Source: Acidobacteriota bacterium
GTDB lineage: Bacteria > Acidobacteriota > UBA890 > WLXD01
NCBI GenBank assembly: GCA_963666055.2
Contig: CAXWPH010000005.1
Location: forward strand, 64,001 to 128,000
Direction of reading: 5' to 3'
Length of the DNA stretch: 64,000 nt
Part shown: positions 1,608-60,988 of the stretch, piece after piece
Position numbering within the stretch: position 1 is the first letter of the stretch
How the letters are laid out: every line of letters begins with the position of its first letter
Notes under the pieces: model-generated
Told to the model about the DNA's origin: nothing
Seen by the model: the letters and a program-made list of their open reading frames with translations, nothing else
The model's database searches: none
Position numbers and translations under genes: made by a program

Positions 1608-1685
1608 TGGCGCGCCCGGCAGGATTCGAGCCTGCGCCCGCTTGCATTAGAAGCCCGCTGCTCTATCCAGCTGAGCTACGGGCGC
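1608..1685 (-). tRNA. Degenerate tRNA-Arg(UCU)-like gene with encoded CCA
   Basis: Minus strand GCGCCCG-TA-GCTC..GAGC, T-stem GCAGG/CCTGC, CGGGCGC-G-CCA. Acceptor, D and T stems pair; the anticodon stem around CTTCTAA pairs poorly and the T-loop is CTCGAAT. Confidence 0.75.
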
Positions 1686-43703: not shown

Positions 43704-43877
43704 CTAGCAGGCCGTGGTGAAAGTGTGGTGTAACCCTTCGGGCGACACGGGGTTGCGCGCGTATGCTGCGTCGTTCCTCGTCAACGATGGGGTAACCATC
43801 GCCTCCTCCTCTCTCCTTGCCTGCGCCTCGCAAGGCCCTGTCGCCAGGCCCACCACACTTTCACCACGGCCTGCTAG
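43704..43877. mobile_element. 174-bp MITE with 27-bp perfect terminal inverted repeats including CTAG
   Basis: CTAGCAGGCCGTGGTGAAAGTGTGGTG ... CACCACACTTTCACCACGGCCTGCTAG; no transposase. Confidence 0.85.
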
Positions 43878-46241
43878 TTGGCGTCGAGCGCTGTCAACGG
43901 ATCGATACGCGCGGTGCGTAGCGCTGTCGGAACGATCGCTAACACAGCCGTGCCGACGATGATCGCGGCCACCGCGGCAAACACACGAACGTCGGTCGCG
44001 CTGACCTCGTAGAGCATGCTCGCCACCACGCGGCCGAGACCGAGGGCACCAACCAGCCCGAAGCCGAGGCCGATCAGCACCGGTGTCACACTGCCACGAA
44101 AAATCAATCTGACGATGCGGGATGCGTCTGCCCCCAACGCCATGCGCACGCCGAGCTCCGGGATCCGCTGTGACGCCGTGAAGCCGACCACTCCATAGAT
44201 CCCAACGGCACCCAACAAGAGCCCGGCAACGGCAAAGAAGCCGACCAAGAAGGCCCGCACGCGCGCGCCCGCCACGGAGGCGTGCCGATCGCTCGATAGT
44301 TGGCGCACGTCGGCGATCGCCTGCTCGGGATCGATGCGTTGCACGGCCGTGCGCACCGCTTGCGTCAACGCCAGCTCATCGCCGCCGGCGGCCCGCACGA
44401 TGACCGAGGCTTCCGACCTCGATAAGCGGATTTGGCCAAACGGCACGTACATGGTCGGGCTAGGCGGCTGCGTCAAGTTCACGTGTCGGACATCGCTGAC
44501 CACGCCCACGATGGTGATCGCCGGCCGGCTTTGTCCGGAGGTGTAGCGGAATCGCTGACCGACCGGGTCCAGGCCTTCGAGGTACTCGGTCACGTATGCC
44601 TGATTGACGAGCGCCACGGGCGGCGCAGCCGCCGTATCGGTCTCAACGAGCCAGCGGCCGCCCAGCAGACGCATGCCCAAGGCCTCACCGTAGTTCGCCG
44701 AGACGCCCTCGAGAAGCGTCGGCGGGCCACTGTTCGCTGCCACCGGCTCGCGCCCTTCGACCCGCGAAGGGAAGTAGAGGCTCGAACCACGAAGCGGCAG
44801 GCCAGTGGTAAAGCCGACGGCTTCGACTCCTGGGACGGTTACGAGCTCGCTCTCCAGTTGGCGCATCATCATCCCGAGTCGTGCCGGGTCGATTACACCT
44901 GGCTGGGTGGGGTCGCTGTACTTGCTTGCTGCGAACGTCATGTCGAATGCCAGCGTTGATGAAGCGTCGAACCCGGCGTCGATGTTGTCGATGCTGGCGA
45001 GCGTGAGCAGCATCAGCGTGGCACCAACCAGCAGCACGAACACGAGCGCGGTCTCGGCGGCGGTGAGAGTCTGCTGGGCCCACGTGGCGCGGCGGCTACC
45101 GCGGCTGCGGCTTCCTGCTTCTCGAACAGCTGCCTCGAGGGGTAATCGCCAGAAGCGCCACGCGGGCAAGAGCGCCGCACCGCAACCGGCGAGAACGGCC
45201 GCCGCCAGCCCAAACACCACAACGCCGAGATCCAGCTGAATATCAGCGGCACGCGGAATCGCGCCCAGCGGACCGGCAACTCCCCAACGCAGCGCGCTCC
45301 AACCGAGCAGCAGGCCGAGCAAGCCACCGGCGAGCCCGAGCATGGCGCCCTCCAGGGTGAGCATGCGCGCGACCCGCCCGCGGCTAGCCCCCAGTGCCAC
45401 GCGTAGCGAGAGCTCGCGCCGTCGAGCGCTGACGCGCGCCAGCATCAGATTGGCGACATTCACCGCACCAACCAGGATCAGAAAGAGCGCCGCCGCAAAG
45501 ATCAGATACACGCTCGAGGCTACGGACCCGGTCATGGCGGTCTGCAGTGGCCGGACATGGGCACCCCAACCGTGGTGCCAGTCGGGATCCTCCACCGCCA
45601 GTCGCGCCGTGATGGCTTCCAGCTCCCGGCTGGCCGAGTCGGCAAGCGCTTCAGTTCGTAGCCGGCCGAAGACCCTCAGCCAGTGGTATTTGTAGCTCGC
45701 CATGCCAGGCTGCGCCGGCGCCGTATCGAGAACTCCGGCGATCCAGAACTGCTGCCGGCCCGGGAACCGAAGGTCGAAGCTCGGTGGCATGACGCCAACA
45801 ACGCGATGCGACGCTCCGTCGAGCCGGATCGTGGCGCCGATCAGGCCCGGATCGGCGCCGAAGCGTGATGACCACAAGGCGTGGTCGAGGATGATGCTCG
45901 GCACCGTCGCATCGCCGCGGTCGGAGTCGTCGAACGTACGCCCGAAGGACGGACTGACACCGAGCGCACGGAAGAAGTTCTTGGTAACGATCGCACCGTC
46001 GATGCGCTCCGGCCGCTCCGGCGTCGCCAAATTTCGGCGCACGCCGCGGCTGCCGGCCAACTCCGAGAAACTGCTGTTGCCGTCGCGCCATGCCGCGAAG
46101 ACTACTGGCGAAACACTGACGTCGCGATAGTGCTGAATGGTTTCCGACACCGCCATGAGCTCAGCCGGCTTCTCATAGTCGAGCGGACGAAGCAGGACCC
46201 CGCTGACGACGCCGAAGACGCCCGTACTGGCCCCCAAACCG
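43874..46241 (-). pseudogene. ADOP-type (MacB/FtsX) ABC permease, 3' part
   Basis: GASTGVFGVVSGVLLRPL, NVANLMLAR..RRRELSLRVALGA, ELGVRMALGA, IDPLTAL. Confidence 0.92.
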
Positions 46242-46249
46242 TCCGCCAT
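46235..46249. repeat. Left att junction: CAAACCG core plus TCCGCCAT half-site
   Basis: The 7-bp core recurs at 60309-60315; TCCGCCAT is the inverted partner of ATGGCAGA at 60301-60308. Confidence 0.85.
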
Positions 46250-46759
46250 AGTAATACAACGAAAGTATTTGTTCACAATAGTTTACAGGAACTTCTAGTG
46301 GACTATCACCTCACTATTCCCACCATTAAGTCTGGGAATAAAGCGAACTTCTCCGGACCTTTGGGGAGCCCTGAACACACCGAGCGCCGAGGCCACAATC
46401 GCACCCGGGGCTGCAACTTCACCACGCATCGCTGCCTCTGATTGCCCTATCTTCGGGTCGCTAGCACAGGGAGCCGACCTTCACCGGCGCGCCCGAGCCG
46501 TACCCTTCACCCGTCCTGCTCCTCCAGGTGCCCAGGGCACTGCCTGGTCCCATAGCGCCTCCAGGGCTTCGGTGTCGCCGGCAGCGCGGGCGCGTACGAG
46601 CGCTGCCAGGAGTGCCCCATCCATCCGGAACACGTCTGTGCCATAGAGAGGCTCCGGCGGCGCCCGCGCGCGCGCGCACGCGAGGCTCCAGGCCCGACGA
46701 AGTAGCACCCTGTTAAAAACATCGGCGGATCACGGATCGGCGGATCATCGTTTCGCGGA

Positions 46760-46967
46760 TCAGGCTCGGGGACGACGGCCCAAGTACTCCGAACGGCAGC
46801 AACGCAATATCGTCGCGCGCTTCCATAACTGGAATCGGGAAGACACCGGCGGCGACTGTTGCGTGTGCGGTTGCGATATCGGCCCCGCTCGCTCCATTGC
46901 CCGGACTTGCTCCCCGAGGTGCAGAACGCAACTGCACCGGATGCGCGCGAGGTATAGCCCGCCATGA
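46760..46967 (+). pseudogene. Zn-finger protein remnant without a canonical start
   Basis: Hand translation: RGRRPKYS..CCVCGCDIGPARSIARTCSPRCRTQLHRMR*. Confidence 0.5.
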
Positions 46968-47054
46968 TTACCGATGCGTTTGTGTGGCTCGTGATTTTCC
47001 TGATTGGCTGCGCAATCTCTATGTCCGGCGAGTAGCTAACACTCCGCGGCCCCC

Positions 47055-47078
47055 GGGGGGGGGGGGGGGGGGGGGGGG
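47055..47078. repeat. G24 homopolymer
   Basis: 24 consecutive G following C5. Confidence 0.9.
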
Positions 47079-47292
47079 CGACGGCATGCATGCTGCGCCG
47101 GTACCAGGTCGGTGGCCCTCCAGCCGCGGTGAGCTCCACTGCCTGATCGGTCACGGACAGCACACGCCGCAATGCGGCGCGCCCACCCGCCATGCGGCAC
47201 ACAACCAGCTGGCCTCTCTTCATGCAGCACGATAAGAGCTTAAGCTAGGAAGTCTCGGGTGAACCCCTAACCTACTGACGAGAGACAAGGTA

Positions 47293-47883
47293 ATGGCTAT
47301 CAGCAAGGCCGTTCGTGACGGACTCCAAGCAGAACAGGCGAGCGTTGCGGATGAGATGGCTCAGCTTGAGGCACGGCTGCAGTGGCTGACAACACGACAG
47401 ACCGCCCTCCGCTTAATCCTGGAACAAGAGGCAGCACCTCCGGAACAAAAGGCCCCGCCGGACACCGGATTACGTCGACTCGGTGTTCGTGATGGGGTTC
47501 GAGCGGTACTCAAGGAAGCTGGGGCGCTGAAACCTGCCCAGGTTACGCGGAGTCTGCGCGATCGTGGCTATCAGTTCAAAGGAAAGACGAAGCCGGGTGC
47601 GCGTGTCGGACAGGAGCTTTGGGCGATGGCCAAGTCGGGCACGCTGAGCAAGAACTCCGCTGGAGAGTACTTCTTGCCCGGTGAGGAACAAGACGAACCG
47701 GACACGGCTGCGCCACCACCGCCCAGCTCCGATGAGGATGCCTTAGCCGTTGTCCGGAACGAATCAGCCGGCGCAGGTGCGGACAGCGGTACCGAGGCAG
47801 TAAGGGTCAGGAGCATCGAGTTGACGGTCTTGAGGTCGGTGCCGGTGAGTTCCACCTCCATTCGAGCCGTCACTGCCGGGTGA
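47293..47883 (+). CDS. Coiled-coil plus winged-helix-like hypothetical protein; 3' end possibly chimeric
   Basis: Heptad N-terminus, then VRAVLKEAG.LKPAQVT.SL.DRGY..GEYFL. Confidence 0.55.
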   Translation: MAISKAVRDGLQAEQASVADEMAQLEARLQWLTTRQTALRLILEQEAAPPEQKAPPDTGLRRLGVRDGVRAVLKEAGALKPAQVTRSLRDRGYQFKGKTKPGARVGQELWAMAKSGTLSKNSAGEYFLPGEEQDEPDTAAPPPPSSDEDALAVVRNESAGAGADSGTEAVRVRSIELTVLRSVPVSSTSIRAVTAG

Positions 47884-48079
47884 TGGACCTTAGCCCCTTC
47901 GGCGGCGCTCAGGGTCCGGTGGCGTTTGTCTTTCACGACGGCGGCACGATGCCGCTCGATCTTTCCTTTCACTTCCTCGACGCCGATGGCGGTTCCGAAG
48001 TTACCCCGGAACTGTGCGCCGCCGAGACCGGTGGCCGCGTCCATGCATCTGCTCGAAGTCCGCGAGCGAGAAGCCGGCC

Positions 48080-48136
48080 TTAGGTTCAGGACCTAGTGGG
48101 CTTCGGCCCGTGGGGGTTCAAGTCCATCCTTGGGCA
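48080..48136 (+). other. 3' part of tRNA-Leu(CAG); att-site remnant
   Basis: TTAGG-TTCAGGA-CCTAG anticodon arm, GGGC-TTCG-GCCC variable arm, GGGGG-TTCAAGT T-arm, CTTGGGCA; no D-arm or 5' strand. Confidence 0.8.
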
Positions 48137-48170
48137 CTCGGTGTAACCACTTATAAAATAAGAAGATACC

Positions 48171-48202
48171 AAGGGGAACCGAGCATTACGTTCGGTCCCC
48201 TT
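48171..48202. terminator. Hairpin after the tRNA-Leu fragment
   Basis: AAGGGGAACCGAGC..GTTCGGTCCCCTT. Confidence 0.6.
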
Positions 48203-48409
48203 CCGCCGCTTTAGCGGCGAGAGTTAACAAACAGTTAACAAAACGGTCGCGAATGCGTCGGCAGCGGTAGTAATGATGCCGGTTGCCGACGGGGACATCG
48301 TACGCTCGATGCAGTGGGCCGACATGGCATAACAAGTTCCTTATCAAGCTTTGCCGACTCTCTCGGCATCATCAAGAACCACCAGGCTAGATCATGCCCG
48401 CGAACTTCC

Positions 48410-48604
48410 GCCGCCATGCGTACAAACGTCTGCGGGCTCACTCCCATCTTCCGGCAGATCTAGCGCACCGGCGTCCCCGCCTCCGCGCGTACGCGATCTG
48501 CTCGTCCGTGTCCCTCTTCTTCTTCATCGATCCTCCCTGTTCGAGGACCACGTTACTCCGATTCCGTCAACCTCCAGCTGGACCAGTTCTCGGGGTTTGG
48601 GTCA
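48410..48604 (-). mobile_element. IS3-family left end with decayed orfA
   Basis: TGACCCAAACCCCGAGAACTGGTCCAG end, then MKKKR.TDEQIAYA..EAGTPVR*ICRKMGVSPQTF. Confidence 0.75.
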
Positions 48605-48704
48605 CGACTCGGCCTGCAGTCATGTCCGCCCAGCCTCACTCTGCACCCCGGCGCGCCTTCCTCACTTCTATCTGGCGCCCGCAGCCCACATATCCCCGTA
48701 ATCC

Positions 48705-49227
48705 CTACGCGGCCTCGTAGGTGATCGAGAAGATCGTGTCCGTCAGCCACCGGCGGAACGACTCGTTGTCGCTGAACTGCTTGAACAGCTCCGTGTCGTC
48801 TTTCAGCAACGCCGTCATCACCCGCCGGAGCGCCTTGTCGTGCTCGATCCGCGCGTTCTGCTTGTCGGAGTTCTGCTTGGCGTTCTGGTAAGCACTGTCG
48901 GCCGCCACGCGGTTCGGGATGTCCTCCGTGATGAGTCGGTGGACGCGGTCGCTATCGGTCCAGGGGATGTTCCCGAACTGGTCGTTGAAGGTCTTGAGGA
49001 TGTTCGAGAGGCAGTCGAGTTCGGGTTCCGGCCTGTGACCAGCGCCGGTACCCGGCACCGGCTTGATCTCGGCGTCCTCGTCCATCAGTTGGACCTGTCT
49101 CGCTGCCTTCTTCTCGACCCGGTAGCTGTCCATGTCGATGAGCTCAAGAATGCCTTGGGACAGATCCTCTTGCACCGGTGCGGGGAGCTTCGGCACCAGG
49201 AAGTTCAGGAAGATAGAGAGCTTCTCC
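48705..49227 (-). pseudogene. hsdR: Type I restriction enzyme R subunit, C-terminal fragment
   Basis: EKLSIFLNFLVPKLP, IDMDSYRVEK, LSNILKTFNDQFG, LFKQFSDNESFRRWL; cut exactly at an IS end. Confidence 0.8.
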
Positions 49228-49885
49228 TGACCTGACCCCCCAAAACGGATCCAGAGGTAATCTCACGATCTGGGTCGAAAAGGGGAGGTCAGAATGCCGA
49301 CGAAGAGGCACAGCGCCGAGCAGATCGTGCGCAAGCTCCGGGAGGCTGAAGTGGAGCTGGCGCAAGGCGGGACGGTCAAGGATGCCTGCCGCAAGCTAGC
49401 GATCACCGAGCACACCTACTATCGGTGGCGGCGGGAGTACGGGGGGCTGAAGGTCAACCAGGCCAGAAGGCTCAAGCAGCTGGAGAAAGAAAACGCCCGG
49501 CTCAAGAAGCTGCTGGCGGAAAAGGAGCTCGACCTGTCGATCCTCAAAGAGGTGGCGGAGGGAAACTTCTGAGCCCGGCACGGCGGCGTGAGGCAGTCCT
49601 ACACGCGTGCCGCAAGGTGGGCGTTTCTGAGCGCCGGGCCTGCTGGGTGCTAAAGCAACCGCGCACGAGGCAGCGGTAGGTACCGAAACCGCCAGTCGAC
49701 GAGCACGTCTTGAGCGAGAGGATCATCCAGCTGGCGCGGCAATACGGCCGTCACGGATACCGGAGGGTCACGGCGTTGCTATGTATGGTCGGCCCTTTCG
49801 CCTGCTGAAGATCGTCGACGAGTACACGCGCAAATGGCTGGCGATCGATGTGGAGCGAAAGCTGAGCTCCGAAAGCGTGTTGTGA
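49228..49885 (+). mobile_element. Truncated IS3-family (IS407-group) element: left end, orfA 49294-49572, decayed orfB
   Basis: KRHSAEQIVRKLREAE..LKEVAEGNF, GGGAAAC orfA/orfB junction, HGYRRV, IVDEYTR. Confidence 0.88.
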
Positions 49886-50135
49886 GGGCGTCCGCCATCA
49901 CTGAGGTGGGGTGCTTTTCCGCCTGCATGTCGGCAAGCTCCTTTATGGCCTTCAGGTCGCCGTGGAGAATCGGTGTCGCTCGTCACCGTCTAGAGTCCTC
50001 GTCGTCGGCACGCATCGGAAACAGCCGAGCGCGGAGGCCCGCGTTATTGCCTTCTCTGGCATTGGGAAACAATCCAGGCAGCCTCTATGCTCCAAGGTTG
50101 CTCACCAAGTTCGGTCGTTCCGGAGGATGCGCCGG

Positions 50136-50933
50136 ATGCCACTCAAGCCCGAAGAACAAGCACGCGAGATCGTAGCCCACTCGATACCGAGAGATGAGGC
50201 AAAGTCTTTTCTCGCGCTGTGCCAGGACATCGCCGTCTTCTGTGAGCGCGAGCTATCCGAGTTCGGTGTCGTTCCGAAATGTAAACCGTCGGAACTACTC
50301 GTGGTGCTGTTCGCACGCAGCATAGAGCTATACCTCGGCGTGCTTAGGCTGGCATCCCACGGCCATCCAGCTGCGGCACGTATCGTGGCCCGCAGCTTGC
50401 TCGAAGCGAGCTTCTTCTTCCGCGCCGCGTACGCGGGCAAAGTCACGCCGGACGACCTGGTCTCTGAGCATGCGCGTTGGCGTGAGAAGCTGATGAACAA
50501 GCTGCAAAACCAATTCGCAGCCGAGTTGCGCGAGGGTTTCGTCGTAACAGATGAACTCCGCGACGAGATCGTTCGCATGTCCGCTGAGGTGGGCTCAGGA
50601 AAGCTCTCGGTCGAGGAGGTAGCGCGGCGCGCTGGCGCACACGACGAGTACCTGCTCGCCTTTGAGCGTCTTAGTTCTACTGTGCATGTGACCAAGCGGG
50701 ATCTACACCAGCAATTCGTTCGGCTACCAGATGGCGGCTCGCGGCTCGTCGTTATCTCCGACGATGTAGACGTCACCACCGTCGCTCTGGCCGCCCAGAA
50801 AACCCTGGTGATGGCGGTTGACGTCGCGGAGATGAATGGCCGAGACGTAGAGGCGGAAGCAGCGCGCAGCTCATCACAGGCTTGCAGCCCTTCACCGCAC
50901 GAGGTGAGCTGTAGCCTTATAGCAGGCTGCTGA
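50136..50933 (+). CDS. DUF5677-like all-helical protein; 3' end probably truncated
   Basis: GGAGG RBS, ARSLLE, SVEEVARRAG, Y...ERLSSTVH. Confidence 0.65.
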   Translation: MPLKPEEQAREIVAHSIPRDEAKSFLALCQDIAVFCERELSEFGVVPKCKPSELLVVLFARSIELYLGVLRLASHGHPAAARIVARSLLEASFFFRAAYAGKVTPDDLVSEHARWREKLMNKLQNQFAAELREGFVVTDELRDEIVRMSAEVGSGKLSVEEVARRAGAHDEYLLAFERLSSTVHVTKRDLHQQFVRLPDGGSRLVVISDDVDVTTVALAAQKTLVMAVDVAEMNGRDVEAEAARSSSQACSPSPHEVSCSLIAGC

Positions 50934-50937
50934 AAAA
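50920..50937. mobile_element. IS5/IS1182-like terminal repeat remnant
   Basis: TAGCAGGCTGCTGAAAAA resembles the MITE terminus TAGCAGGCCGTGGTGAAA. Confidence 0.45.
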
Positions 50938-51074
50938 CGGCCGCGACAGGCCATTTCGGGCTCTCGCATGGCGAACGGGTAGCCTGATTTGACTCGGTGT
51001 GGCAACGCAGTTACCACCGATGGCACCGCATCGAGGGTCGTTGGTTGTTGGTTGTTGTACCGTCACGTCGCCGC

Positions 51075-51725
51075 CTCAAGCGCTTCCTGCGAACCATTCA
51101 GTCGGCCCCGATTCGTGCCATCGAGATCAAGCCGAGCCAGGGCGCCAAGCCCGGCCTCGGCGGACTTCTGCCGGAGAAGAAAGTGTCCGCCGCAATTTCG
51201 GCGATCCGGAGCATACCCGTTGGCCAGAGCTGCGTGAGCCCGGCACGTCATTCGGTGTTCTCGGATGCGGACCGCATGCTCGATTTCGTCGAGATGCTAG
51301 CCGAGGAAACCGGTTTGCCGGTGGGTATCAAGTCCGCCGTGGGCGAAATTGACTTCTGGAGGCAGCTGGCCCGCCTGATGGCGGACACGGGGCGCGGTCT
51401 CGATTTCGTCACGATCGATGGAGGTGAGGGAGGCACCGGAGCCGGCCCGCTTGTATTCACCGACCACGTGGCGCTTCCGTTCAAACAGGGCTTTAGTCGC
51501 GTCTATCGAGAATTCGCTGAAGTCGAAGCTCATGACTGTTTCGTGTTCATCGTTTCTGGACGGCTGGGCTTTCAGAAATCTGCGGTCTTTTGGTCTGGGC
51601 TGCGGCATGATCAATGTGGGGCGTGAGGCCCATGATGGCCGTCGGCTGCATCCAGGCACAACGCTGTCACACTGGCCACTGTCCTACGGGCGTAGCCACC
51701 CAGAACCGATGGCTCACCCGGGGCC
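51075..51725 (+). pseudogene. FMN-binding glutamate synthase family fragment
   Basis: IEIK.SQGAKPG, DGGEGGTGA, GCIQAQRCHTGHCPTGVATQ; frameshifted. Confidence 0.85.
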
Positions 51726-51786
51726 TCCCTTGCATCGCTTTCGATATCACGGCGGACGGTACTGCTGCGACGGACATCGAGCACAT

Positions 51787-51985
51787 TGACCTGACCCCCG
51801 AAAACGGGTCCAGATGTAATCTCACGATCTGGGGCCATGACCCCACCCCGAAATCAGTACCAGTCAGAGGTTTAGGATTCGGTGTTCCGAAGCCTCCGGT
51901 TGCCAGCCCCTGGCGAACTCCGTAGGAGTTCGATCGTTCAGTGAGCTGTGTGGTCTGTGGGTATTGTAATCAGGCCTCCACCAGG
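51787..51985. mobile_element. IS3-family solo left end (51787) abutting a right end and orfB tail on the minus strand
   Basis: 47-bp near-copy of the 49228 end; TGACCCCACCCCGAAATCAGTACCAG at 51838; DYNTHRPHSSLNDRTP. Confidence 0.8.
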
Positions 51986-52598
51986 ATCGTGCGTGTGCGC
52001 GTCCGTTTGTTTCAGGGAGACGCGCCAGCAATCCAACGGGGGAAGGACCGCTCATTTGGCCATATTAATTTGTTCCATAGGGCAAGAACTTTGAGTTTTG
52101 CGAGCCGATTGAGGCTCTCTAAATCTGCAAGGGAGCGGGGACGGGTCTGATGTGGGCACGTTCGACGTGCCGGACGGACTCTCGGCGGTCAGTGTCTTTC
52201 GACACCTCGACGAAGCCCGAGACGCCGGTGTCATGGGGCGCTTCTGAAATCGGCGTTCGTTCCGACCCACAGCGCGTCGGCCTTGAACGCGAGGCCGAAG
52301 CCGTTGCTGCCGCCCAGGACCTGACCCCGGCCGCCGGGCGTGCAAGACGAAGAGTTGGAGGACTCCACGGGGCGCATGTATCAGAGGTGCGTCGCCAGGA
52401 CAGCTACACGAGCGCTGGGGAGTTCGAGAAGCTGCGGCCAGCGATCGGCGTGGTGCTCGAGGTGCCTAATCCTGGAGGCTGCTTTGCCGACGGGGCAGCC
52501 GGTCGCTAGCGCATTCGCCCTGCTGCGCCTGCATCGATAGCCGGCCTGGTCGCTTCAATTGGCCGGAGAATCGGATCGAGGGCTCTTATTCTGCGACG

Positions 52599-53897
52599 CT
52601 AGCGCACGGCGGTCCCCGCGCTCCTTGTCCCTTCGGCCCCGCGATCGGCAACAGCGCTGAGCGCCCGCTCCACGTCCCGCCCCGTCGGACTCTGGAACAC
52701 CCGCAGGTCAAACTCCGGCACCACCGCTAGCAGGTGGTCGAAGATGTCCGCCTGGATCGCCTCGTAGCGGCTCCAGTCCTGATCGCTGCTGAACACGTAG
52801 ATCTCGATCGGGAGCCCGTGGTCCGTCGGCGCTAGCTGCCGGACTAGGAGTGTCATGTGCTGGTGCAGCATCGGGTGGTGGCGGAGGTACGCCACCACAT
52901 AGGCGCGAAACGTCCCGATGTTCGTCAAGTGGCGGCCGTCGGCCAGGCTCGCCGGGTCGACCCCGCGCTCCTCGTTCCAGCTGGCGACCTCCTCGTGCTT
53001 GGCCTTCAGATACTCGGCGATGTACTGAATCTTCGAGAAGCGCGCCAGCATCTCCTCATCGCAGAAGCGGATCGAGCTGACGTCGATGTACATGGCTCGC
53101 TTGATCCGCCGGCCACCTGACTCCGACATCCCGCGCCAGTTCTTGAACGAGTCCGTGATCAGCGCGTAGGTGGGAATCGTAGTGATCGTCTTGTCCCAGT
53201 TCTGGACCTTCACTGTTGTCAGCCCCACCTCGAGCACGTCGCCATCGGCACCATGCTTCGGCATCTCGATCCAGTCGCCGGTCGAGACCATCCGGTTCGC
53301 CGACATCTGGATGCCGGCGACGAAACCAAGGATGGCGTCCTTGAAGATCAGCATCGTCACCGCGCTCATCGCGCCGAGGCCGCTGAGCAGCAGCAGCGGC
53401 GAGCGGCCGAGGGCGAGCGACAGGACGCTGATGCCCGTCACAGCGCACAGCACCAGCTTGAGCACCTGAGCGAGACTCCGGACCGGTAGCTCCCACGGGA
53501 GCTGCGACCCTCGGACGATCTCGATCCCCGCGTTCACGGCGCTGTCGACCGCCAGCGCCGCGATGACGATCATGTAGATGAGCGCCCCTTGCCGCGCGAC
53601 GGCTGTCAGCTGTGCGTATCCGGCCAGCACCGGAGTCGCAAATTGATAGACCACTAGCGCGGGTGCGAGATGCGCGACCCGGTGCAGCACCCGGTGCCGC
53701 AACACCACATCGTCCCATTGCGCACTCGTCCGCTGCGCGAGTCGTGTGATGCTTCGCACCACGAAGCGCTTGGTGACGTAGTCAGCGATCAGCGCCACGA
53801 GCAGGACTAGCAGAACGCCTGCGAGGCGCGTCAGCAGCGTGGCGGCCGCCACCGTTAGGCCCCACCCCAGCAGCCGGTCCTGCAGCGCGTTAAGCAC
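52599..53897 (-). CDS. MscS-family mechanosensitive channel (YbdG-like)
   Basis: GDWIEMPKHGADGDV, VKVQNWDKT, SGGRRIKR, QADIFDH. Confidence 0.92.
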   Translation of the reverse strand: MLNALQDRLLGWGLTVAAATLLTRLAGVLLVLLVALIADYVTKRFVVRSITRLAQRTSAQWDDVVLRHRVLHRVAHLAPALVVYQFATPVLAGYAQLTAVARQGALIYMIVIAALAVDSAVNAGIEIVRGSQLPWELPVRSLAQVLKLVLCAVTGISVLSLALGRSPLLLLSGLGAMSAVTMLIFKDAILGFVAGIQMSANRMVSTGDWIEMPKHGADGDVLEVGLTTVKVQNWDKTITTIPTYALITDSFKNWRGMSESGGRRIKRAMYIDVSSIRFCDEEMLARFSKIQYIAEYLKAKHEEVASWNEERGVDPASLADGRHLTNIGTFRAYVVAYLRHHPMLHQHMTLLVRQLAPTDHGLPIEIYVFSSDQDWSRYEAIQADIFDHLLAVVPEFDLRVFQSPTGRDVERALSAVADRGAEGTRSAGTAVR

Positions 53898-54031
53898 GCG
53901 GGATCTCCATACCGCAGGATACTATCGTCGATGGTTCCCAAGCGCCTGTCGAGAGGTTAGGCTCGCGCTCCACTAACAGGTAGCTAACCGGTACGATGGC
54001 CCCGTTAGAGAACCGGGCAACGAGACGAGTG

Positions 54032-55135
54032 TGACCTTGCCCCGCTTTCCCGGACACTTAGTTAAGATCCATTGTCGTAGTCGTAGTAGCGGCTGTGGGA
54101 GCTGTTGGCAACGCGGAGCGTTGTCCAAGCGACGGTGGAAATCGGGAGTCGATTTCCACGGGCGCGTCAGCTTCCACAGCTGATTGGCCGCTCTGGCCTG
54201 GCCGCCGCATTGCCGCCTCGAACTGAGCCGGACTCTGGTCTCCGATCGAGGTGTGCATGCGAGCCCGGTTGTAGAACACTTCGATGTAGTGGAACAACTC
54301 GGCTCGGGCCGCCGCCCGGGAACTGAAGCAGCCACCGAGTTCGAACTTCAGGGTAGAGAAGAAACTCTCCATCGGCGCGTTATCCCAGCAGTCTCCTTTC
54401 CTGCTCATGCTGATGGTGAAGCCACGGTCACGCAGCTTGTCTAGGTAATCGTCGCTGCTGTACTGGCTGCCGCGGTCGCTGTGATGGAGCACTCCGGAAC
54501 CGGGACGGCGTTGCTCCAAGGCCTGATCCAGGACCGCCAGCGTCAAATCGTCCGTCATCGTCTCGCTCACCGCCCAGCCGATGATCCGTCGCGAGCACAG
54601 ATCCATCAGCACGGCCAGGTATAGCCATCCTTCCTGCGTCCACAGGTATGTCAGGTCGCCCACCCAGACGCTGTCCACGGCATCCACCGTGAAGCGCCGT
54701 GCCAGCACGTTGGGCGCCGCTGACCGCCCAGGTGTGGGCCGTGTTGTCACCCGGAACCGACGGGGTTGGCGAGCTCGAAGTCCTTCCTGGCGCATCAGCC
54801 GAGCTACCCGCTTGCGAGAGCAGCGGATCCCTCGTTGCCGAAGTTGCTTGTGGATGCGCGGACTTCCGTAACGGTCGCGGCTCTCTCGGAATGCAGCTCT
54901 GATCTGCACACGTAGACGGCGATCTTCTCGCGCTCTCGGGCTCGGCCCCCTTCCTCGCCACTCGTAGTAACCGCCGTGAGACACCTCGAGCATCTTGCAC
55001 AACCGCCGCACCGGGAACTTGCCGGACAGTTGCTTGATGATCGGGTACTTCATCGCGGGCGTTCCGAGAAGATCGCCAACGCTTTTTTTAGAATGTCGCG
55101 CTCCTGCCGTACTCGCCGCAGGTCCCGCCGTAGCC
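54032..55135 (-). mobile_element. IS3-family element lacking its left end; orfB intact
   Basis: orfA tail ERDILKKA with an A7G slippery site, YGSPR, WVGDLTY, HSDRGSQY, WDNAPMESFF; right end at 54032-54057. Confidence 0.92.
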
Positions 55136-55226
55136 AACTCTCCAGGACCTCGCGCACCGCGACCTCAAGCTCCGCCCGGATGGCGGGACCCGCTAATTCG
55201 CTTCAGCTCGCTATCCTCTAAGTGCC

Positions 55227-55652
55227 TCATCGGCAACCCTCATCGCGCGCCATCGCTCGCACTGCATCTGCGTGAGCGGCGCTCACGATCCACTCCGCGG
55301 CGGTCAGCGTCTCAAGGTCCCGGCCCCACCATTGCCGGAGATTCTCGAGTGCCTCGTCCTCTGGCCAGCGCTCACCGTCGAAGTGAGCCACCAAGGCCGC
55401 AGCACCGAGGAACTCACGGCGGGACCCGTCCAGGCCGTACAACTGTGCGAGCTGGTGATCGATGTCGAGGGGTCGGTGCCGTTCGCCGGGCGCGATCAGG
55501 GTCGCGAGCAGTTCCGCCTTGTGCGTTCGAAGATCCGTCAACAGCTCCGTCGTCAGGACGGATCTGCGCGCTCGGTAGCAGAGAGACCCGCCGTCGACCC
55601 ATAGCTCGATGCCGTCGGCTCGACAACGGGAGAGCAGATCGATCGAGGTCAT
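55227..55652 (-). CDS. Small protein with a TubC N-terminal-like domain
   Basis: LLSRCRADGIELWVDGGSL.YRA..L..HKAELLA. Confidence 0.6.
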   Translation of the reverse strand: MTSIDLLSRCRADGIELWVDGGSLCYRARRSVLTTELLTDLRTHKAELLATLIAPGERHRPLDIDHQLAQLYGLDGSRREFLGAAALVAHFDGERWPEDEALENLRQWWGRDLETLTAAEWIVSAAHADAVRAMARDEGCR

Positions 55653-57301
55653 AGCTGACCTTCTGCGATGGTTTCGTCGCCGCCGGTGGTGACAACCGGC
55701 GACGGCGACAAAACCCCCAAGAGCTGACGTTCTGTCGCCGGTTCTGTCGCCACTGAATAGCCCCGCTCCTTATGGGTTTTCTTAGTTGTGTCGCCATATA
55801 GGGTTCTGTCGCCATTGGAGGTTTCGTCGCCACTGTCGGCCAGTACGAATTCCCGAGTGGGACGCCCACCCTCGGGACCACGGTCGGGTTCGTGCCACTC
55901 CCCGGCACCCATCGCGACCAGCTCCTCAAGGGCTGCTGCCGCGGCGCCCGAGGTGCGGTAATGCCGCGGGCCCCTCGCTAGGTCGCGTTCGGTAGTACGG
56001 CCGCCGCGTTTCTGAATCCACCGCAAGAGCTGCCGATGATCCCCCTCGGTGGCTGACCCGAGCATGTCGGTGACGGTTACGCCCTCGGCAGTACCTAGCC
56101 ACTCGATACCGGATGTTGGTATCGGCCCGTCTGGACCGATGACCTCGCGCCCTTCAATCCGAAGACGAAGAGGTTCCATCCGCGGGCCTAGGTTGCATTT
56201 GCCATGCGCGAGAACACGATCCGGCCCCTCTTCCGTGTCGTCGTCTGGGTCGCGGGTTAGCAGCAGCACCGAACGTGCCGCGGCGCTCAACGCCACCGAT
56301 CCACCGACACGCCGAATGAGATCCGCTACCTGCGACTTGTTGAGATGCGCGATACCGATTACGGCGGCGTCAGTCGCCTCGGCCATGCGGCAAAGGGGCG
56401 CAAGGGCACGGCGTAGGCTCGCATCGCGATGGGAGTCCACCTTGCCCGACAGATGACCCATGATCGGATCAATAATGACTAGGCGCGCGCGCTCCTGTTC
56501 CACTCGGCGCTGCAGCTCGGGGACGTCGTCCGGCAGTGTAATGCTGCCGGCGAGCCCATCGCGCTGCATCACGACGAAACTGACCTTATTGAGATCCGCG
56601 CTGGCCGCTTCTAGCCGTGCCCGCAGGACCGTAAGGGCATCCTCCGCGGTCGCGATCAACACGGGCACCGGCCGGCCGTGTAGGTCTCCGGGAAGATCAC
56701 CCTTCGACACACGCGCGGCTACCTCGACGGCCGCCGTCGTCTTGCCAAGTCCTGGATCGCCCACGAACAACGACAGGGCCCCGAGCGCCACGCGGCCATC
56801 CCACGCCCAGTTCACACGCACGGCGTCGATGTCAGCCGCGCGAACCAAGTAGAGACCACGAGATGCCGGATCGGTCCTAACCGCTTCCAGATTTTCACAC
56901 AGGCGCTCGATGATCTCGTCGGTATCGGTTCCCCTCTCCATCGCTTCGATAACCGCCGCGTTGGCCACCTCGACCATCCTGCGGCGCCGGGCGGCAGACT
57001 TGACGATACGCGCGTACTGATCGACGTTCGCCGCCGCCGGCAACCCATCGATCAAGCCAGAGATATATGCCGCTCCGCCGGCACGCTCCAGCACATCGCG
57101 TCGCACGAGTTCCTCGCGCAGAGTCACCATATCGATGGCCTCGGAGCGCTCCGACAAACACGCCATGGCTTCGTAGATCAGCCGGTTGGCATCGCTGAAG
57201 AAGTCCTCGGAAGCGAGGACCTGGGCTGCGGCGTTCAACGAGTGGTTACCGAGCAGCACCGCGCCGAGGATCGCCCTCTCGGCCTCGACATTGTTCGGCA
57301 T
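55649..57301 (-). CDS. DnaB N-terminal domain fused to a RecA-like (AAA_25/RepA) helicase and a C-terminal wHTH
   Basis: PNNVEAERAILGAVLL, Walker A GDPGLGKT, LVIIDP, HLNK; start codon uncertain. Confidence 0.85.
   Translation of the reverse strand: MPNNVEAERAILGAVLLGNHSLNAAAQVLASEDFFSDANRLIYEAMACLSERSEAIDMVTLREELVRRDVLERAGGAAYISGLIDGLPAAANVDQYARIVKSAARRRRMVEVANAAVIEAMERGTDTDEIIERLCENLEAVRTDPASRGLYLVRAADIDAVRVNWAWDGRVALGALSLFVGDPGLGKTTAAVEVAARVSKGDLPGDLHGRPVPVLIATAEDALTVLRARLEAASADLNKVSFVVMQRDGLAGSITLPDDVPELQRRVEQERARLVIIDPIMGHLSGKVDSHRDASLRRALAPLCRMAEATDAAVIGIAHLNKSQVADLIRRVGGSVALSAAARSVLLLTRDPDDDTEEGPDRVLAHGKCNLGPRMEPLRLRIEGREVIGPDGPIPTSGIEWLGTAEGVTVTDMLGSATEGDHRQLLRWIQKRGGRTTERDLARGPRHYRTSGAAAAALEELVAMGAGEWHEPDRGPEGGRPTREFVLADSGDETSNGDRTLYGDTTKKTHKERGYSVATEPATERQLLGVLSPSPVVTTGGDETIAEGQL
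55671..55831. repeat. Iteron-like cluster GTTBYGTCGCC (6 direct, 1 inverted)
   Basis: Copies at 55671, 55729, 55741, 55785, 55803 and 55821; inverted copy at 55704. Confidence 0.8.
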
Positions 57302-57348
57302 CGAACGCTCCCGCGGCCGCGGCTGGGCTCGATCACGTAGCTGCCCCA

Positions 57349-57609
57349 CTACGCGACCTCGCCTCGGTCGCCGACACGGGCGGCGGTACCGTTGAGCCCG
57401 TTGGGCTGTCGAATGTCCAGACTCCGGCCCGCTAGGGCTTCCAGGACCGCCTCCTGCATGCATCCGGCGTGACAGTGCACCAGCACCTGCCCGTCGCGCT
57501 CTGTCGCGCTCAGGCTCGGGTTGCGGTCCTCGTGCGCCGGGCAGGGGTCCATGCCAGGTCCATTGGATCGACCCTCGAGCGCGCGGACGATCTGCTCCAG
57601 GCTGGCCAC
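57349..57609 (-). CDS. Primase-type Zn-binding domain, stand-alone or frameshifted from the helicase
   Basis: [21 protein letters not shown]. Confidence 0.75.
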
Positions 57610-57610
57610 G

Positions 57611-57835
57611 TCACGTTGACTGCTGGGGAGGGGCAGGTTGATCGCCCCCCGGCAGGGCGGTCGGACGGCTCGCTAACCACGCCTCGATGTCCGCCAGCCG
57701 CCAGGCTACGGCTCGGCGGCCGATGCGCACCGGACGGGGGAACTCCCCCGCATCCATCGCAGCGTAGATCGCCGAGCGTGACAGTCGCGTGATCTGCTCG
57801 ACTTCAGGACGCTTGATGAGGACTTGCTGCTCCAT
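57611..57835 (-). CDS. alpA: AlpA family regulator/excisionase
   Basis: [34 protein letters not shown]; GGAGG RBS. Confidence 0.92.
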
Positions 57836-57946
57836 GAGGAACCTCCTTGGTTTTGGTGGTTCCTCACACTATGCAGGCGTACCTCGTGCCTGTCATGGGT
57901 GCGAGTTTCCGATAACCCGCCCCCACGGCCAGGGTGGCGCAGCCGA

Positions 57947-58606
57947 CTACCGCTTACCCCGCCATATGTCGCGCATGGTGTTGTACGAGCTCACGTCGTG
58001 AATTCTCTCCTTGAGCACCCCGAGCACGATGTCGCAGGCGGACGGACGCTCCATCGCGTCGGTAGCCTCATTGCGCTCAGCATGCATGCCACACTCTGTC
58101 AGGATGTGGACCGCCCATCGGAGCACGTCATTTCGCTCGGCCATCTTGGGGGCCGGCCCTCTGCTGCCCTTGCCGCCTTTCGGTCGCGGACACCGGCCGT
58201 GGATTACGTCGCCTACCCAACGGTGCAGGGCTTGCCCGAGTGGACGTTTGCCTTCGGTGTGCGCGAACGTCCACGCCAGCGCGTCCCAATCTACGGGGCT
58301 AGTACGTGATCCTTCGATAGTGGATTCGATATCCTCGCGCGGGGTGTTGTCTTCGCCCTGAAGAAACAACGCAGCGTACATCCATACGTTGTAGTTGTGG
58401 GCGATCTCTGGGTTTCTCCACGACGGGTCCAGGTCGAGCCACAAGCCCACAAGCGCGCGCGCATCGTCGTTGGAAATGCGCTCTTTCTGCTCAATGAATC
58501 GTGTCCGGTGCTTATGGTGCAGCTTGGCGAACTCATCGTTCCGGGATTTGTCCAGGACGGCACGCACAGGCAACACTAGTTGCCTCGCGCGCTCTTTTTT
58601 ACCCAT
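57947..58606 (-). CDS. Hypothetical protein between integrase and alpA
   Basis: 219-aa ORF co-oriented with the module. Confidence 0.65.
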   Translation of the reverse strand: MGKKERARQLVLPVRAVLDKSRNDEFAKLHHKHRTRFIEQKERISNDDARALVGLWLDLDPSWRNPEIAHNYNVWMYAALFLQGEDNTPREDIESTIEGSRTSPVDWDALAWTFAHTEGKRPLGQALHRWVGDVIHGRCPRPKGGKGSRGPAPKMAERNDVLRWAVHILTECGMHAERNEATDAMERPSACDIVLGVLKERIHDVSSYNTMRDIWRGKR

Positions 58607-58905
58607 GAGGCAGCGCCGGCGCGATGGTCTGGATCAGTGCGGCCGAGTGCAGCCCGGGCCCACTGATCGATGGGTACAGCAGCATCAGGCCCAGGATGAC
58701 GGCCGGGATCAGCCTCAGCACGCGGCCCGAAAGGTTGATCCTGAGCGGGAGGAGATCGCCCATCCTCACGTTGCCGAACTCACCTCTGTCCATATCATCT
58801 CTCCGTAGGCACGGGGGCGGTGGGGTAGACACGTCTTCAGGGTAGCGTGCGTGGCCGTCTGCCAACCCGCCCAGTTCGGCAGGGAACCGACACGGGTATT
58901 GCTCC

Positions 58906-60150
58906 CTAGACAGGCCGCAGCATCGGCACCACCTTACCGCCCTCAGCACTCAGGTAAGCGGCCCAGTCTTCCATCAGCTTCCGGCGCCGCTCCAGCAGGT
59001 CCGAGCGCGCATAGGCCGCCTCGGTCGGGTCGCGCACCGCATGCGCCAGCGCCGCCTCCATGACCGCCCGCGGTGCGTTGGTGCACTCCGCCGCCCAGTC
59101 CCGGAACGATGAGCGAAACCCGTGCGGCACCGCTTCAATGCCCAGCTGCCGCAGCACCCGGGAAAGGGTCGCGTCCGCCAGCGGCCTGCCGGCCCGTGCA
59201 CCGGGAAACACCAGCCCCTCGCCATCCCTGAGCCCCCGCGCCTGGCGCAGGATCTCCATTGCCCGGCCCGATAGCGGTACCCGGTGGGCCCGGTTCGATT
59301 TCATGCGCTCGGGTGCAAGAGTCCACTCCCTCGCCTCCAGGTCCATCTCCTGCCAGGTAGCCAACCGCACCTCGCCGGAGCGGGCCGCCGTCAACACCAG
59401 AAACTCCAGGGCCAACTTCACCACCCCGGAGGCATCCGAAGCCCGCACCGCCTCGATTGCACCGTCCACCTCGGCATGCGGCAACGCCCGCATGTGCTGT
59501 CGCCGCTTGCGGTGCCGTGGCAGCGCCTGGGTGATCGCCTCACCGGCCGGGTTGTCGCCACGGTACCCCTGCGCCACGGCCCACTTCATCACCGTACCGA
59601 TGCGCGCCCGCACCCGCCGTGCGGTCTCGGCCTTGTCATGCCAGATCGGACCCAGTACCTCCAACACCTCGGCCGTTGTCACCTCCGACACCGGCATCTC
59701 ACCGATGCGCCCGTACGCATAGGTGCGCAACTCCGTTTTCCATTGCGCCGCATACTTGGCGTTGCGCCACCCGGGGCGGTGCATCTCATACACCTTGGCC
59801 GCTGCTTGCGCGAACGTCGGCATGCCCTCGGCCCGGCGCTTGTCTGCCAGAGGGTCACCGCCGGCACGGGCCAGCTTGCGGTTGGCAAATGCCACCTCGC
59901 GGGCCTCCGACAGTGACACCAAGGGGTAGCCTCCGAGACCCAGTTCCCGGCGTCGGCCCTGGATCACGATCCGCTGTACCCAGCAGCGCGCTCCGCTCGG
60001 GATCACGTTCAGGTACAGGCCGTGTCCATCGCAGTACCGGCCCGGCTTCATTACCGTGCGTACGAACGCCGCCGACAGGGCCCGCTCCGGGTGCTTGCCG
60101 CTCTTGCGCCGTGGGCTGGGTTTCGGTGTAGTTGCTTGCGCATCGGACAT
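58906..60150 (-). CDS. P4-type tyrosine integrase with an arm-binding domain
   Basis: DGHGLYL..RRRELGLGGYP.VSLSEAR; catalytic ARSGE, MK, HGFR, LAH and AY. Confidence 0.95.
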   Translation of the reverse strand: MSDAQATTPKPSPRRKSGKHPERALSAAFVRTVMKPGRYCDGHGLYLNVIPSGARCWVQRIVIQGRRRELGLGGYPLVSLSEAREVAFANRKLARAGGDPLADKRRAEGMPTFAQAAAKVYEMHRPGWRNAKYAAQWKTELRTYAYGRIGEMPVSEVTTAEVLEVLGPIWHDKAETARRVRARIGTVMKWAVAQGYRGDNPAGEAITQALPRHRKRRQHMRALPHAEVDGAIEAVRASDASGVVKLALEFLVLTAARSGEVRLATWQEMDLEAREWTLAPERMKSNRAHRVPLSGRAMEILRQARGLRDGEGLVFPGARAGRPLADATLSRVLRQLGIEAVPHGFRSSFRDWAAECTNAPRAVMEAALAHAVRDPTEAAYARSDLLERRRKLMEDWAAYLSAEGGKVVPMLRPV

Positions 60151-60300
60151 ATTCTGCGTCCCCCTCTCATTCCACCATTAGAGGCTGGAATATAGCGGAT
60201 TTCACGGGAACACGCAAGATGGCCGAATACTCGTAACTATCTGACTCTACTGATGCTTAGGGACTAATAGGTCAACTTAGGAATGCACCGGATCTGAACG

Positions 60301-60315
60301 ATGGCAGACAAACCG
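60301..60315. repeat. Right att junction: ATGGCAGA half-site plus CAAACCG core
   Basis: Second copy of the 7-bp core. Confidence 0.85.
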
Positions 60316-60656
60316 AGGGCCAGCGTCAGGGTTGCGGTGATCGTGTGGGAAGGCGCGGCGCGCAAGCTTCGCAGAGCCTGCCGGAAGTCGTCGAGCAAGG
60401 CGGTCACGCGGTCCTCGAGATCGGGGGATGGGCTGCTGGCGGAACCTCGGGCGAACACCTCTCGCACATACGCCGCCGGCACGCGGGCGCCGAACACCAC
60501 CAGCTCACGCCAATACCAGATATGCGCTGGCAGGGCCCCGCGCGTGCCGCGGATGCGCTCGAAGCGTTCGCACAAATCGCCGATCGCTTCCTCGGCACCA
60601 GGGCCGCGCAGCAAGCGCCGCAGGAGAACGATCGAACGGGGTGCGCGGACGCTCAT
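60309..60656 (-). pseudogene. ADOP-type ABC permease, 5' part (116 codons)
   Basis: EEAIGDL.E, WYWRE, DFRQALRSLRAAP..TLTLALGL; its ATG overlaps the padR stop. Confidence 0.9.
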
Positions 60657-60988
60657 GCGTTTCCGTCGCGCAGCGTCGGATCGAGCCCGTCCCACATAGC
60701 GAACAGGGCGCCGGCGGCCGAGCGTAGTCGCTCCCGCCCCAACTCGGTGACCTCGAAGTAGCGCTTTGCACGTCCGCCGCGCTCGTGGGAAGCGTCACCG
60801 ACACGCGCCGCCACGAGCGCCTTTTTCTCGAGCCGTTGCAAAGCGATATAGGTGGCCGCCTGCGACACCCGCCGGCTGGTCCGCTCTTCCACCTCGCTCA
60901 AGATCGAGACGCCGTATGCGTTGTCACCGAGGCGCAGGATGGCGAGCAGGATGAGGTGCTCGAATTCGCCGAGTGCGTGTCTGGCCAC
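60653..60988 (-). CDS. PadR family regulator (acidobacterial type)
   Basis: LGEFEHLILLAILRL..AYG, RLEKK, RGGRAKRYF. Confidence 0.93.
   Translation of the reverse strand: MARHALGEFEHLILLAILRLGDNAYGVSILSEVEERTSRRVSQAATYIALQRLEKKALVAARVGDASHERGGRAKRYFEVTELGRERLRSAAGALFAMWDGLDPTLRDGNA

Follow-up and report, generated by a model that had tools for sequence, protein, structure and literature searches.

A P4-type integrative element in Acidobacteriota that probably uses a first-helix motif of paralogous ADOP permease genes as its integration site

Known integrases of the P4/CP4 type each have a single site in a genome, in most cases at the 3' end of a gene for a tRNA or tmRNA, and they restore it. 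Conserved coding or multicopy targets are exploited by the dusA-, guaA- and comM-specific islands and by the eukaryotic R2 and Dada elements, and several copies of the REP13E12 repeat serve as sites for phiRv1. A review places phiRv1 of Mycobacterium tuberculosis in a REP13E12 repeat and assigns it a serine recombinase (PMC9317374), and Starship elements have been described at 5S rDNA (PMC10104507). Here we report an integrative element in a 64,000-nt stretch of contig CAXWPH010000005.1 from an Acidobacteriota genome; this whole stretch is called the window, and unprefixed positions refer to it. We consider it highly probable that this 14-kb P4-type element interrupts the first-helix codons of a gene for an ADOP family duplicated permease (ADOP; TIGR03434), and that its integrase lineage uses the same motif, in the first transmembrane helix (TM1), in many ADOP paralogs. 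The lineage is known from two genomes, where integration is deduced from the sequences of the junctions.

Islands of the P4/CP4-57 type likewise have a three-domain integrase at one junction, an excisionase-like gene and a primase or helicase nearby, inverted core half-sites and a 7-bp overlap. Unlike these islands, the element has its site in the 5' portion of the coding sequence of a gene from a protein family of about 37-54 copies, and instead of a single tRNA or tmRNA site its lineage occupies at least seven ADOP genes and three other sites, in both orientations and with an overlap that is not fixed. The nearest published idea that we found is the residence of phiRv1 in REP13E12, which also combines a site-specific integrase with a multicopy target in one genome. 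However, that enzyme is a serine recombinase and its target is a repeated non-essential element, whereas the target described here is a conserved motif of paralogous protein genes. The dusA, guaA and comM islands, R2, Dada and the Starships resemble our element in that insertion into sequence that is conserved and coding, or present in many copies, gives them a reliable place to land at little cost, but the islands use single-copy genes, and the multicopy examples are eukaryotic and involve other enzymes or RNA-gene targets. In the literature searched, no paper connected integrases to ADOP permeases or to families of paralogs that serve as their targets.

The boundaries of the element are marked by a 21-base pattern, TGGC-N3-CAAACCG-N3-GCCA, which occurs exactly twice in the window and in none of 100 dinucleotide-preserving shuffles. 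A first-pass annotation of the same DNA had proposed symmetric attachment (att) sites of the form TGGC-N13-GCCA, built as 7/8 inverted repeats around a 7-bp overlap, and both the count and the individual bases bear this out.

46228..46248, plus strand: attL-like junction at the end away from the integrase; half-sites TGGCCCC (target) and TCCGCCA (element), separated by the overlap CAAACCG
60302..60322, plus strand: attR-like junction, adjacent to the integrase; half-sites TGGCAGA (element) and AGGGCCA (target), separated by the overlap CAAACCG
46242..60308, no strand assigned: integrative element; 14,067 bp between the 7-bp repeats, 14,074 bp with one repeat included
43874..46241, minus strand: downstream portion of the ADOP permease, comprising about 780 C-terminal codons and including one 7-bp repeat; TIGR03434
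60316..60695, minus strand: upstream (N-terminal) part of the ADOP permease; the frame runs on across the rebuilt site
60653..60988, minus strand: PadR-family regulator immediately upstream of the permease; PF03551, with TIGR03433 below its cut-off
58906..60150, minus strand: P4/CP4-type tyrosine integrase, 414 aa, apparently intact; Arm-DNA-bind_3, Phage_int_M, Phage_integrase

The ends of the element are 8-bp imperfect inverted repeats (TCCGCCAT ... ATGGCAGA). Both the rejoined element site, aTGGCAGA-CAAACCG-TCCGCCAt, and the rebuilt target site, cTGGCCCC-CAAACCG-AGGGCCAg, are 7/8 inverted repeats around the 7-bp repeat. When the element is removed in silico and the flanks are joined over one CAAACCG, a minus-strand open frame of 916 codons is restored, which reads ...TLTLALGLGASTGVF... 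/ ...TLTLALGLGASTGVFGVVSGVLLRPL... and spans LTLALGLGAS, the TM1 motif of an ADOP permease. Read in the direction of the gene, the target site is cTG GCC CTC GGT TTG GGG GCC Agt (L-A-L-G-L-G-A), and the motif codons CTG GCC CTC GGT TTG GGG GCC AGT thus generate TGGC-N13-GCCA, as had been suspected before the frame was rebuilt. The downstream part of the permease scores 709.8 bits against the TIGR03434 cut-off of 622.3 bits (profile 23-800), and carries MacB_PCD (PF12704) and FtsX (PF02687) in two stretches each, which are the duplicated halves of the protein.

The integrase has the domain order PF13356 (1.5e-18), PF22022 (1.9e-27) and PF00589 (5e-16), corresponding to arm-binding, SAM-like central and catalytic domains, and it also matches solved CP4-like integrase domains. 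Its sequence contains AARSGE (R257), RMKSN (K284), HGFR (H343, R346), RDW (W352) and AAYARS (Y381); we take R257, K284, H343, R346, W352 and Y381 to be the tyrosine-recombinase catalytic set of R, K, HxxR, H/W and Y, a reading made directly from the sequence. This integrase is the sole recombinase conserved on the backbone of the element.

Support for targeting of the wider ADOP family comes from a sister genome of the same genus (G019), which we compared with the genome containing the window (G000). Below, numbered copies are element copies in G019, C-numbers are contigs and L-numbers are loci examined. G000 encodes one copy of the window integrase and one paralog that is 80% identical, and G019 carries four full-length integrases (97-99% identical), three that share an in-frame deletion and one that is truncated. 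Searches of G019 with DNA of the element arms located 8 integrase-side ends and 9 far-side matches. At all eight integrase-side ends, ATGGCAGA is followed by a variable 7-mer and by flanking DNA that is unrelated from end to end, so that the element half-site TGGCAGA of the attR-like junction is identical at every one of them; the half-site TCCGCCA of the attL-like junction also recurs at G019 junctions. Five of the eight integrase-side flanks are different ADOP genes cut at the same codons, and four far-side ends also adjoin ADOP parts. Of these four, two are regular ends among the 9 far-side matches, C9:3151805 is an end with a divergent arm, and the C2:18287 junction was located separately.

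Copy 2, C9:918723: flank ...ILLTLALEI
Copy 5, C9:2186537: flank ...VAVLTLALGI
Copy 6, C9:1755791: flank ...TAVLTLALGI
Copy 8, C8:465652: flank ...AIVSLALGI
Copy 3, C8:640351: adjoins the downstream ADOP part (IGANTAVFSV...), that is, in the opposite orientation
Far-side end C9:1743841: adjoins an ADOP part; partner of copy 6
Far-side end C8:534928: adjoins an ADOP part; partner of copy 3
Far-side end C9:3151805: adjoins an ADOP part; arm 75% identical
Far-side junction C2:18287: adjoins an ADOP part; arm divergent

The truncated ADOP genes of G019 begin at TIGR03434 profile positions 19-24, and the window gene begins at 23. At least six different ADOP genes are occupied in G019 and possibly seven, the number being uncertain because C2:18287 and copy 8 could be halves of one gene. 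Together with the window gene, this amounts to at least seven independent ADOP insertions in two genomes, all at the same codon position and one of them reversed. The first-pass annotation had suggested that this lineage draws on redundant ADOP paralogs, and that mapping the ends and targets of close integrase homologs would reveal it. The integrase-side and far-side ends at ADOP TM1 in G019 came out as predicted, and the empty orthologs in G000 agree with them.

Specifically, G000 has intact, empty orthologs of five ADOP targets and one non-ADOP target that are occupied in G019.

G000 C15:569399: empty site for the copy 3 pair, TGGCTTT GGGGATC GGCGCCA
G000 C11:~193633: empty site for the copy 6 pair, TGGCGCC GATGCCA AGCGCTA
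G000 C7:~258355: empty non-ADOP site for the pair C9:331567/348209, CGGCCGT CGATCAA ACTGCCG
G000 C15:1581780, C11:15311 and C8:21074: further empty ADOP sites

The flanks of the copy 3 pair map to G000 C15:568813-569412 and 569406-570005, meeting over exactly 7 bp, and every G019 insertion whose two flanks could both be placed in G000 has them meeting there over about 7 bp. These insertions are precise and independent, and not duplicates of one interrupted gene. The four complete junction pairs, combined with the empty sites, define a 7-bp overlap between inverted half-sites.

Window: far side CAAACCG, integrase side CAAACCG, 7/7 identical
Copy 6: far side GATGCCG, integrase side GATGCCG, 7/7 identical
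Copy 3: far side GGGGATC, integrase side GGTGATC, 6/7 identical
Non-ADOP pair C9:331567/348209: far side CAATCAC, integrase side CAATCAA, 6/7 identical

Unpaired ends carry GATTTCG, GATGCCA, GATGCCG, GATACCG, GGTACGC and GGTGATC. Wherever an ortholog exists, the 7-mer is that of the target or is one base off. The idea that the overlap varies with the target is thus upheld: the 7-mer differs from site to site and follows the target at both ends, which places the crossover inside the 7-bp overlap and indicates that the overlap sequence is not fixed by the element.

Variable overlaps are also a feature of other tyrosine recombinases. One study describes IntDOT as recombining mismatched overlaps, provided that there is identity at the first cleavage site, with the overlap dictating orientation (PMC2817482). 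CTnDOT with its IntDOT and Tn916 with its Int resemble the present system in using many sites (10-11 are mapped here) in both orientations, in overlaps that differ from site to site, and in possessing an arm-binding domain. In contrast, the paired 7-mers reported here agree at 7/7, 7/7, 6/7 and 6/7 positions, whereas mismatch tolerance should, from its mechanism, leave unlike 7-mers. Furthermore, our integrase belongs to P4-type Pfam families, the motif it targets is coding sequence from a single gene family, and no conjugation genes were seen in the window element in a search that was not exhaustive. Transfer-related families were matched by none of 19 open reading frames (ORFs) scanned between 43.9 and 61.7 kb (the element and its flanks), a scan that covered small ORFs only in part.

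Because the same or nearly the same 7-mer is present at both ends, classical identity-dependent exchange fits better than IntDOT-type tolerance, and we propose the following mechanism. The core domains of the integrase would bind inverted half-sites YGGCNNN and NNNGCCR, which the codons for L-A-L-G-I-G-A-N would create and which the element ends ATGGC(A/G)GA (ATGGCAGA, ATGGCGGA) would mimic. Cuts made 7 bp apart would be followed by strand exchange across the overlap, mostly where the overlaps agree, and the overlap on the excised circle would be the one acquired at the site it had just left. Most overlap positions are common to the ADOP motifs (C-GGN-ATC on the coding strand), which might thus offer many targets that match or are one base off; the two pairs that differ at one base would be consistent with hops between overlaps separated by a single base. 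Copies whose integrase is crippled would be mobilized in trans by intact copies.

Candidates for such mobilization are copies 3, 5 and 8, which have no equivalent of window 59285-59500, an in-frame segment of 216 bp (72 codons, residues ~218-289) whose loss takes out R257 and K284. Contigs of run X1 contain the deletion joint as well. Over 1.9 kb, copies 5 and 8 show 100% identity, and copy 3 is 99.3% identical to both over the last 1 kb, although the three occupy three different ADOP genes, one of them in reverse. We predict that these copies were moved by the integrases of intact sister copies.

A bolder formulation would cast the integrase as a family-targeting 'transposase' that reads a protein-coding motif held constant by selection in dozens of paralogs, with the overlap re-set at each hop, insertion in either orientation, and ATG-bearing ends that may keep the host gene partly expressed; we regard this full version as tentative and somewhat unlikely. 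Both element ends start with ATGGC, so an in-frame ATG precedes the cut permease in either orientation. The context of this codon is ATG GCG GAC GGT TTG GGG GCC in the window and ATG GCA GAG GTG ATC GGT GCC in copy 3. A sigma-70 scan of the far arm, using a model that may not suit this phylum, found no promoter for the cut permease.

Several observations weigh against the proposal that the lineage uses the TM1 motif in many ADOP paralogs. Three junction sets in G019 lie outside ADOP genes, two of which (C9:331567/348209 and C8:550703) have a similar symmetric core.

C9:331567/348209: non-ADOP site; core CGGCTGT-N7-ACTGCCG
C8:550703: non-ADOP site in the first helix of an MscS-like gene; core TGGTGCT-N7-GCTGCCG; G000 site TGGTGCT GGTACGC GCTGTCG
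C9:3139870: non-ADOP site beside a LytS-like kinase gene; flank starts TTCGCCA

Several G019 copies have partner ends that are mismatched, absent or truncated, which means that this genome has been rearranged. At C9:908045-919272 (L042), an intact ADOP site is followed 10.7 kb on by the integrase-side junction of copy 2 (C9:918723); the flank of that junction is present in duplicate over 542 bp (98.2% identical), beginning exactly at the overlap, and the arrangement looks as if an element had been excised aberrantly and had then come back in through homologous recombination. Near-identical copies with very different overlaps (GATGCCG and GGTGATC) are unaccounted for by a simple identity-dependent model. 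The dissimilar overlaps could reflect either mismatched entry followed by excision, circle replication and matched re-entry, or an enzyme more tolerant of mismatches than the paired ends suggest; the element does carry a helicase/primase. Junctions 3 and 4 carry the same GGTGATC next to unlike flanks.

On the same side of the balance, a DNA search with both flanks of the window's own target in four genomes of the genus returned only weak paralog matches and no empty version. The window overlap (CGGTTTG in gene sense) occurs in none of 36 G000 paralogs, leaving the single-copy element without a perfectly matching second site in G000, a situation that fits its single-copy state. Contigs of four public runs were compared with 45800-60800, and among the joints listed none crossed the element, where rare forms can be missed in contigs; those of X9, X11 and X14 bridge both junctions unaltered. 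A search of G000 and G019 for an intact element site, ATGGCAGA-N7-TCCGCCAT with up to 2 mismatches, returned chance-like matches and junction 4 only. These searches thus revealed no excised circle, no empty site for the window gene and no intact element attachment site. Finally, the ADOP habit was found in two of the five genomes of the genus (G000 and G019), in no other genome searched and not in the metagenome scan; homologs 47-71% identical to the integrase are present in 18 of 401 sampled genomes of the phylum, and an ADOP fragment lies within 1.5 kb at none of 32 loci examined. (This sample counts one unpublished genome, G166, which carries no claim.)

The pair of ends assigned to copy 3 (C8:534928-640351; L043, L149-L152, L046) encloses 105 kb of mosaic DNA. 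This mosaic includes a second element copy, many insertion sequences and a truncated ADOP gene, and stretches of it are 94-97% identical to window 8.6-30 kb (G000 C5:72.6-94.3 kb).

Among the alternatives, the one that fares best holds that the integrase has loose specificity for a symmetric YGGC-N13-GCCR core, and that the excess of ADOP sites arises from harmless hits among some 50 redundant genes while other insertions are lost by selection. The three non-ADOP sites, two with a symmetric core, are what this explanation expects, and the ADOP family is indeed large, with at least 54 TIGR03434 matches in G000 and at least 55 in G019. However, G000 contains 337 TGGC-N13-GCCA sites, where its base composition predicts about 202, together with 2740 sites of the form YGGC-N13-GCCR, and ADOP TM1 accounts for 12 of the 337 strict sites and for only 12 to 16 of the strict and relaxed sets, yet 7-8 of the 10-11 mapped insertion sites are in ADOP genes. 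This disparity indicates that the integrase reads more than the bare motif. Near-total lethality of other sites, which such enrichment would demand, is unlikely in a bacterial genome. In addition, 7 of 8 ADOP junction sets share one orientation, a bias that also points to sequence reading beyond the core. We therefore give loose specificity only a small chance of being the whole explanation. The ADOP bias is probably strengthened by the host's ability to do without any one of some 50 paralogs, but this tolerance is insufficient alone. The bare TGGC-N13-GCCA pattern is insufficient for targeting, and only 12 of 36 intact G000 paralogs (found with an N-terminal query) have it in register.

It is far less probable that the copies spread by homologous recombination or gene conversion between paralog flanks, or through a DDE transposase with a 7-bp duplication, the integrase being uninvolved. 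The ends formally resemble terminal inverted repeats accompanied by a duplication of 7 bp, the element contains insertion sequences, and recombination between copies has occurred in G019. Nonetheless, each flank is specific to its paralog as far as the 7-bp repeat itself, the paralogs have only a short motif in common, and one insertion is reversed, which flank homology cannot yield. The insertion sequences are secondary and are not common to all copies, and the target half-sites mimic the element ends, as is expected of a tyrosine recombinase core.

Least credible of all is a one-off secondary insertion by a tRNA-targeting P4-type island, an origin that distant homologs beside tmRNA (L101), tRNA-Arg (L113) and tRNA-Gln (L006) genes bring to mind but that conflicts with at least six more ADOP genes occupied at the same codons by elements whose integrases are 97-99% identical, and with two window junctions at which no tRNA gene was found.

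The latter possibility was the refuting case named at the outset, namely that homologs would integrate at tRNA genes or unrelated sites. It is excluded for this lineage and holds for integrases that are 53-80% identical, which are found at tRNA and tmRNA genes, at the 3' end of one gene and at other sites.

L101: after a tmRNA gene
L113: after a tRNA-Arg gene
L006: integrase 70% identical, in a Latescibacterota genome; beside a tRNA-Gln gene whose 5' end is 12 bp away
L097, L109 and L110: three genera, integrases 60-61% identical; directly after the stop codon of one conserved gene ending ...VFALPE*

The last of these lineages appears to have the 3' end of a single gene as its target. Closer to the window integrase, the class that is 80% identical (loci L049 and L050 included) comprises G000 C15:1744463-1745668 and two G019 copies; together they occupy three different non-ADOP places. 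Its integrase-side junction reads xxGGCGGA-G(G/A)(G/A)GGTG-ACCGCTAT, and neither a far end nor a flanking repeat could be defined for this element, which in G000 extends about 16 kb beyond C15:1744463-1745668. Beyond these, a scan of species-representative genomes found a single integrase at 70% (L006) and others at 35-45%, and a metagenome scan found none above 55%.

In several relatives the stretch 160-190 bp ahead of the integrase gene contains a palindrome, xTGGCGGx-N7-xCCGCCAx. The first-pass annotation had likened TCCGCCA to the 3' end of a tRNA, which is not supported: the palindrome TGGCGGA-N7-TCCGCCA in relatives identifies TCCGCCA as a conserved core arm and gives no evidence of a tRNA end. 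At L006 (5812-5834), a perfect palindrome, ATGGCGGA-GAGGGTG-TCCGCCAT, lies 12 bp from the 5' end of the tRNA-Gln gene and 138 bp upstream of the integrase start, and both of its halves resemble element half-sites.

The junction signature ATGGCRGA-N7-GGNGCCA gave 58 matches in 54 of the 401 phylum genomes, with about 26 for the reversed control, and none of the 30 loci examined in other genomes had an ADOP gene. One match, G020 C2:2868760, was considered as an element remnant and rejected as a chance match.

The backbone common to the G019 copies comprises 46242-46641, 47094-48148 and 56999-60308, and the cargo between these segments differs. In addition to the integrase, the following features were recognized within the element; the cargo also includes a glutamate-synthase fragment.

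46312..46345, plus strand: candidate binding site (arm-type, or for an accessory protein), far arm; TATTCCCA-N10-TGGGAATA; resembles the integrase-side arm site
46507..47223, minus strand: backbone ORF, 238 aa, without a family match; 46642-47093 is extra relative to the G019 copies
47293..47883, plus strand: backbone ORF, 196 aa, without a family match; inside the segment 47094-48148 common to the G019 copies
48043..49788, no strand assigned: insertion-sequence copies or fragments in the cargo; 82-95% identical copies elsewhere in the genome
49911..50933, plus strand: DUF5677 gene, cargo; domain match
52599..53897, minus strand: MscS-type mechanosensitive channel, cargo; domain match
54022..55134, minus strand: IS3-family insertion sequence in the cargo, transposase 54058-55137; rve and HTH_21
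55649..57463, minus strand: helicase with DnaB-N and AAA_25 domain matches (replication module)
57349..57609, minus strand: short ORF with a primase-like N-terminus; phrog_6088, E = 3.1e-9
57611..57835, minus strand: excisionase or AlpA-like DNA-binding protein; phrog_66 (1.8e-13), phrog_2790 (5.4e-13)
57947..58949, minus strand: two backbone ORFs, 219 aa and 116 aa, without a family match; conserved in the G019 copies
60169..60200, plus strand: candidate binding site (arm-type, or for an accessory protein), integrase-side arm; aligned motif

The two arms have CCACCATTA and one aligned motif of about 30 bp in common, and this shared motif may be a binding site for the arm domain of the integrase or for the excisionase. 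The IS3-family copy, of which G000 has at least six others that are about 99% identical, is a secondary insertion outside the backbone. A 47-base repeat at 49228-49274 and 51787-51833 (94% identical) also ends insertion-sequence-like repeats elsewhere in the genome. The cargo MscS gene is about 73-75% identical in DNA sequence to a chromosomal MscS-like gene (G000 C15:519921), and the first helix of this chromosomal gene is the non-ADOP insertion site at C8:550703 in G019. Elsewhere in the window, ARAGORN calls a tRNA with anticodon CTA at 1608-1685 (minus strand), labelled tRNA-Pyl, which might be an amber suppressor, a true pyrrolysine tRNA or a false call.

Site-specific integrases are usually given one address per genome, and here a conserved coding motif of a family with 37-54 members appears to serve as the address. 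Such a choice would offer many redundant, low-cost landing sites that are hard for the host to mutate away, because the motif is under constraint at the protein level. It would also blur the boundary between site-specific integration and transposition, and might be one way to account for the multiplication of integrative elements inside a single genome, as in G019 with its eight or more copies. Furthermore, a variable overlap that matches the target would constitute a natural system for testing how overlap identity constrains or permits site switching, and an integrase whose crossover sequence follows its target could be of practical interest for genome insertion tools.

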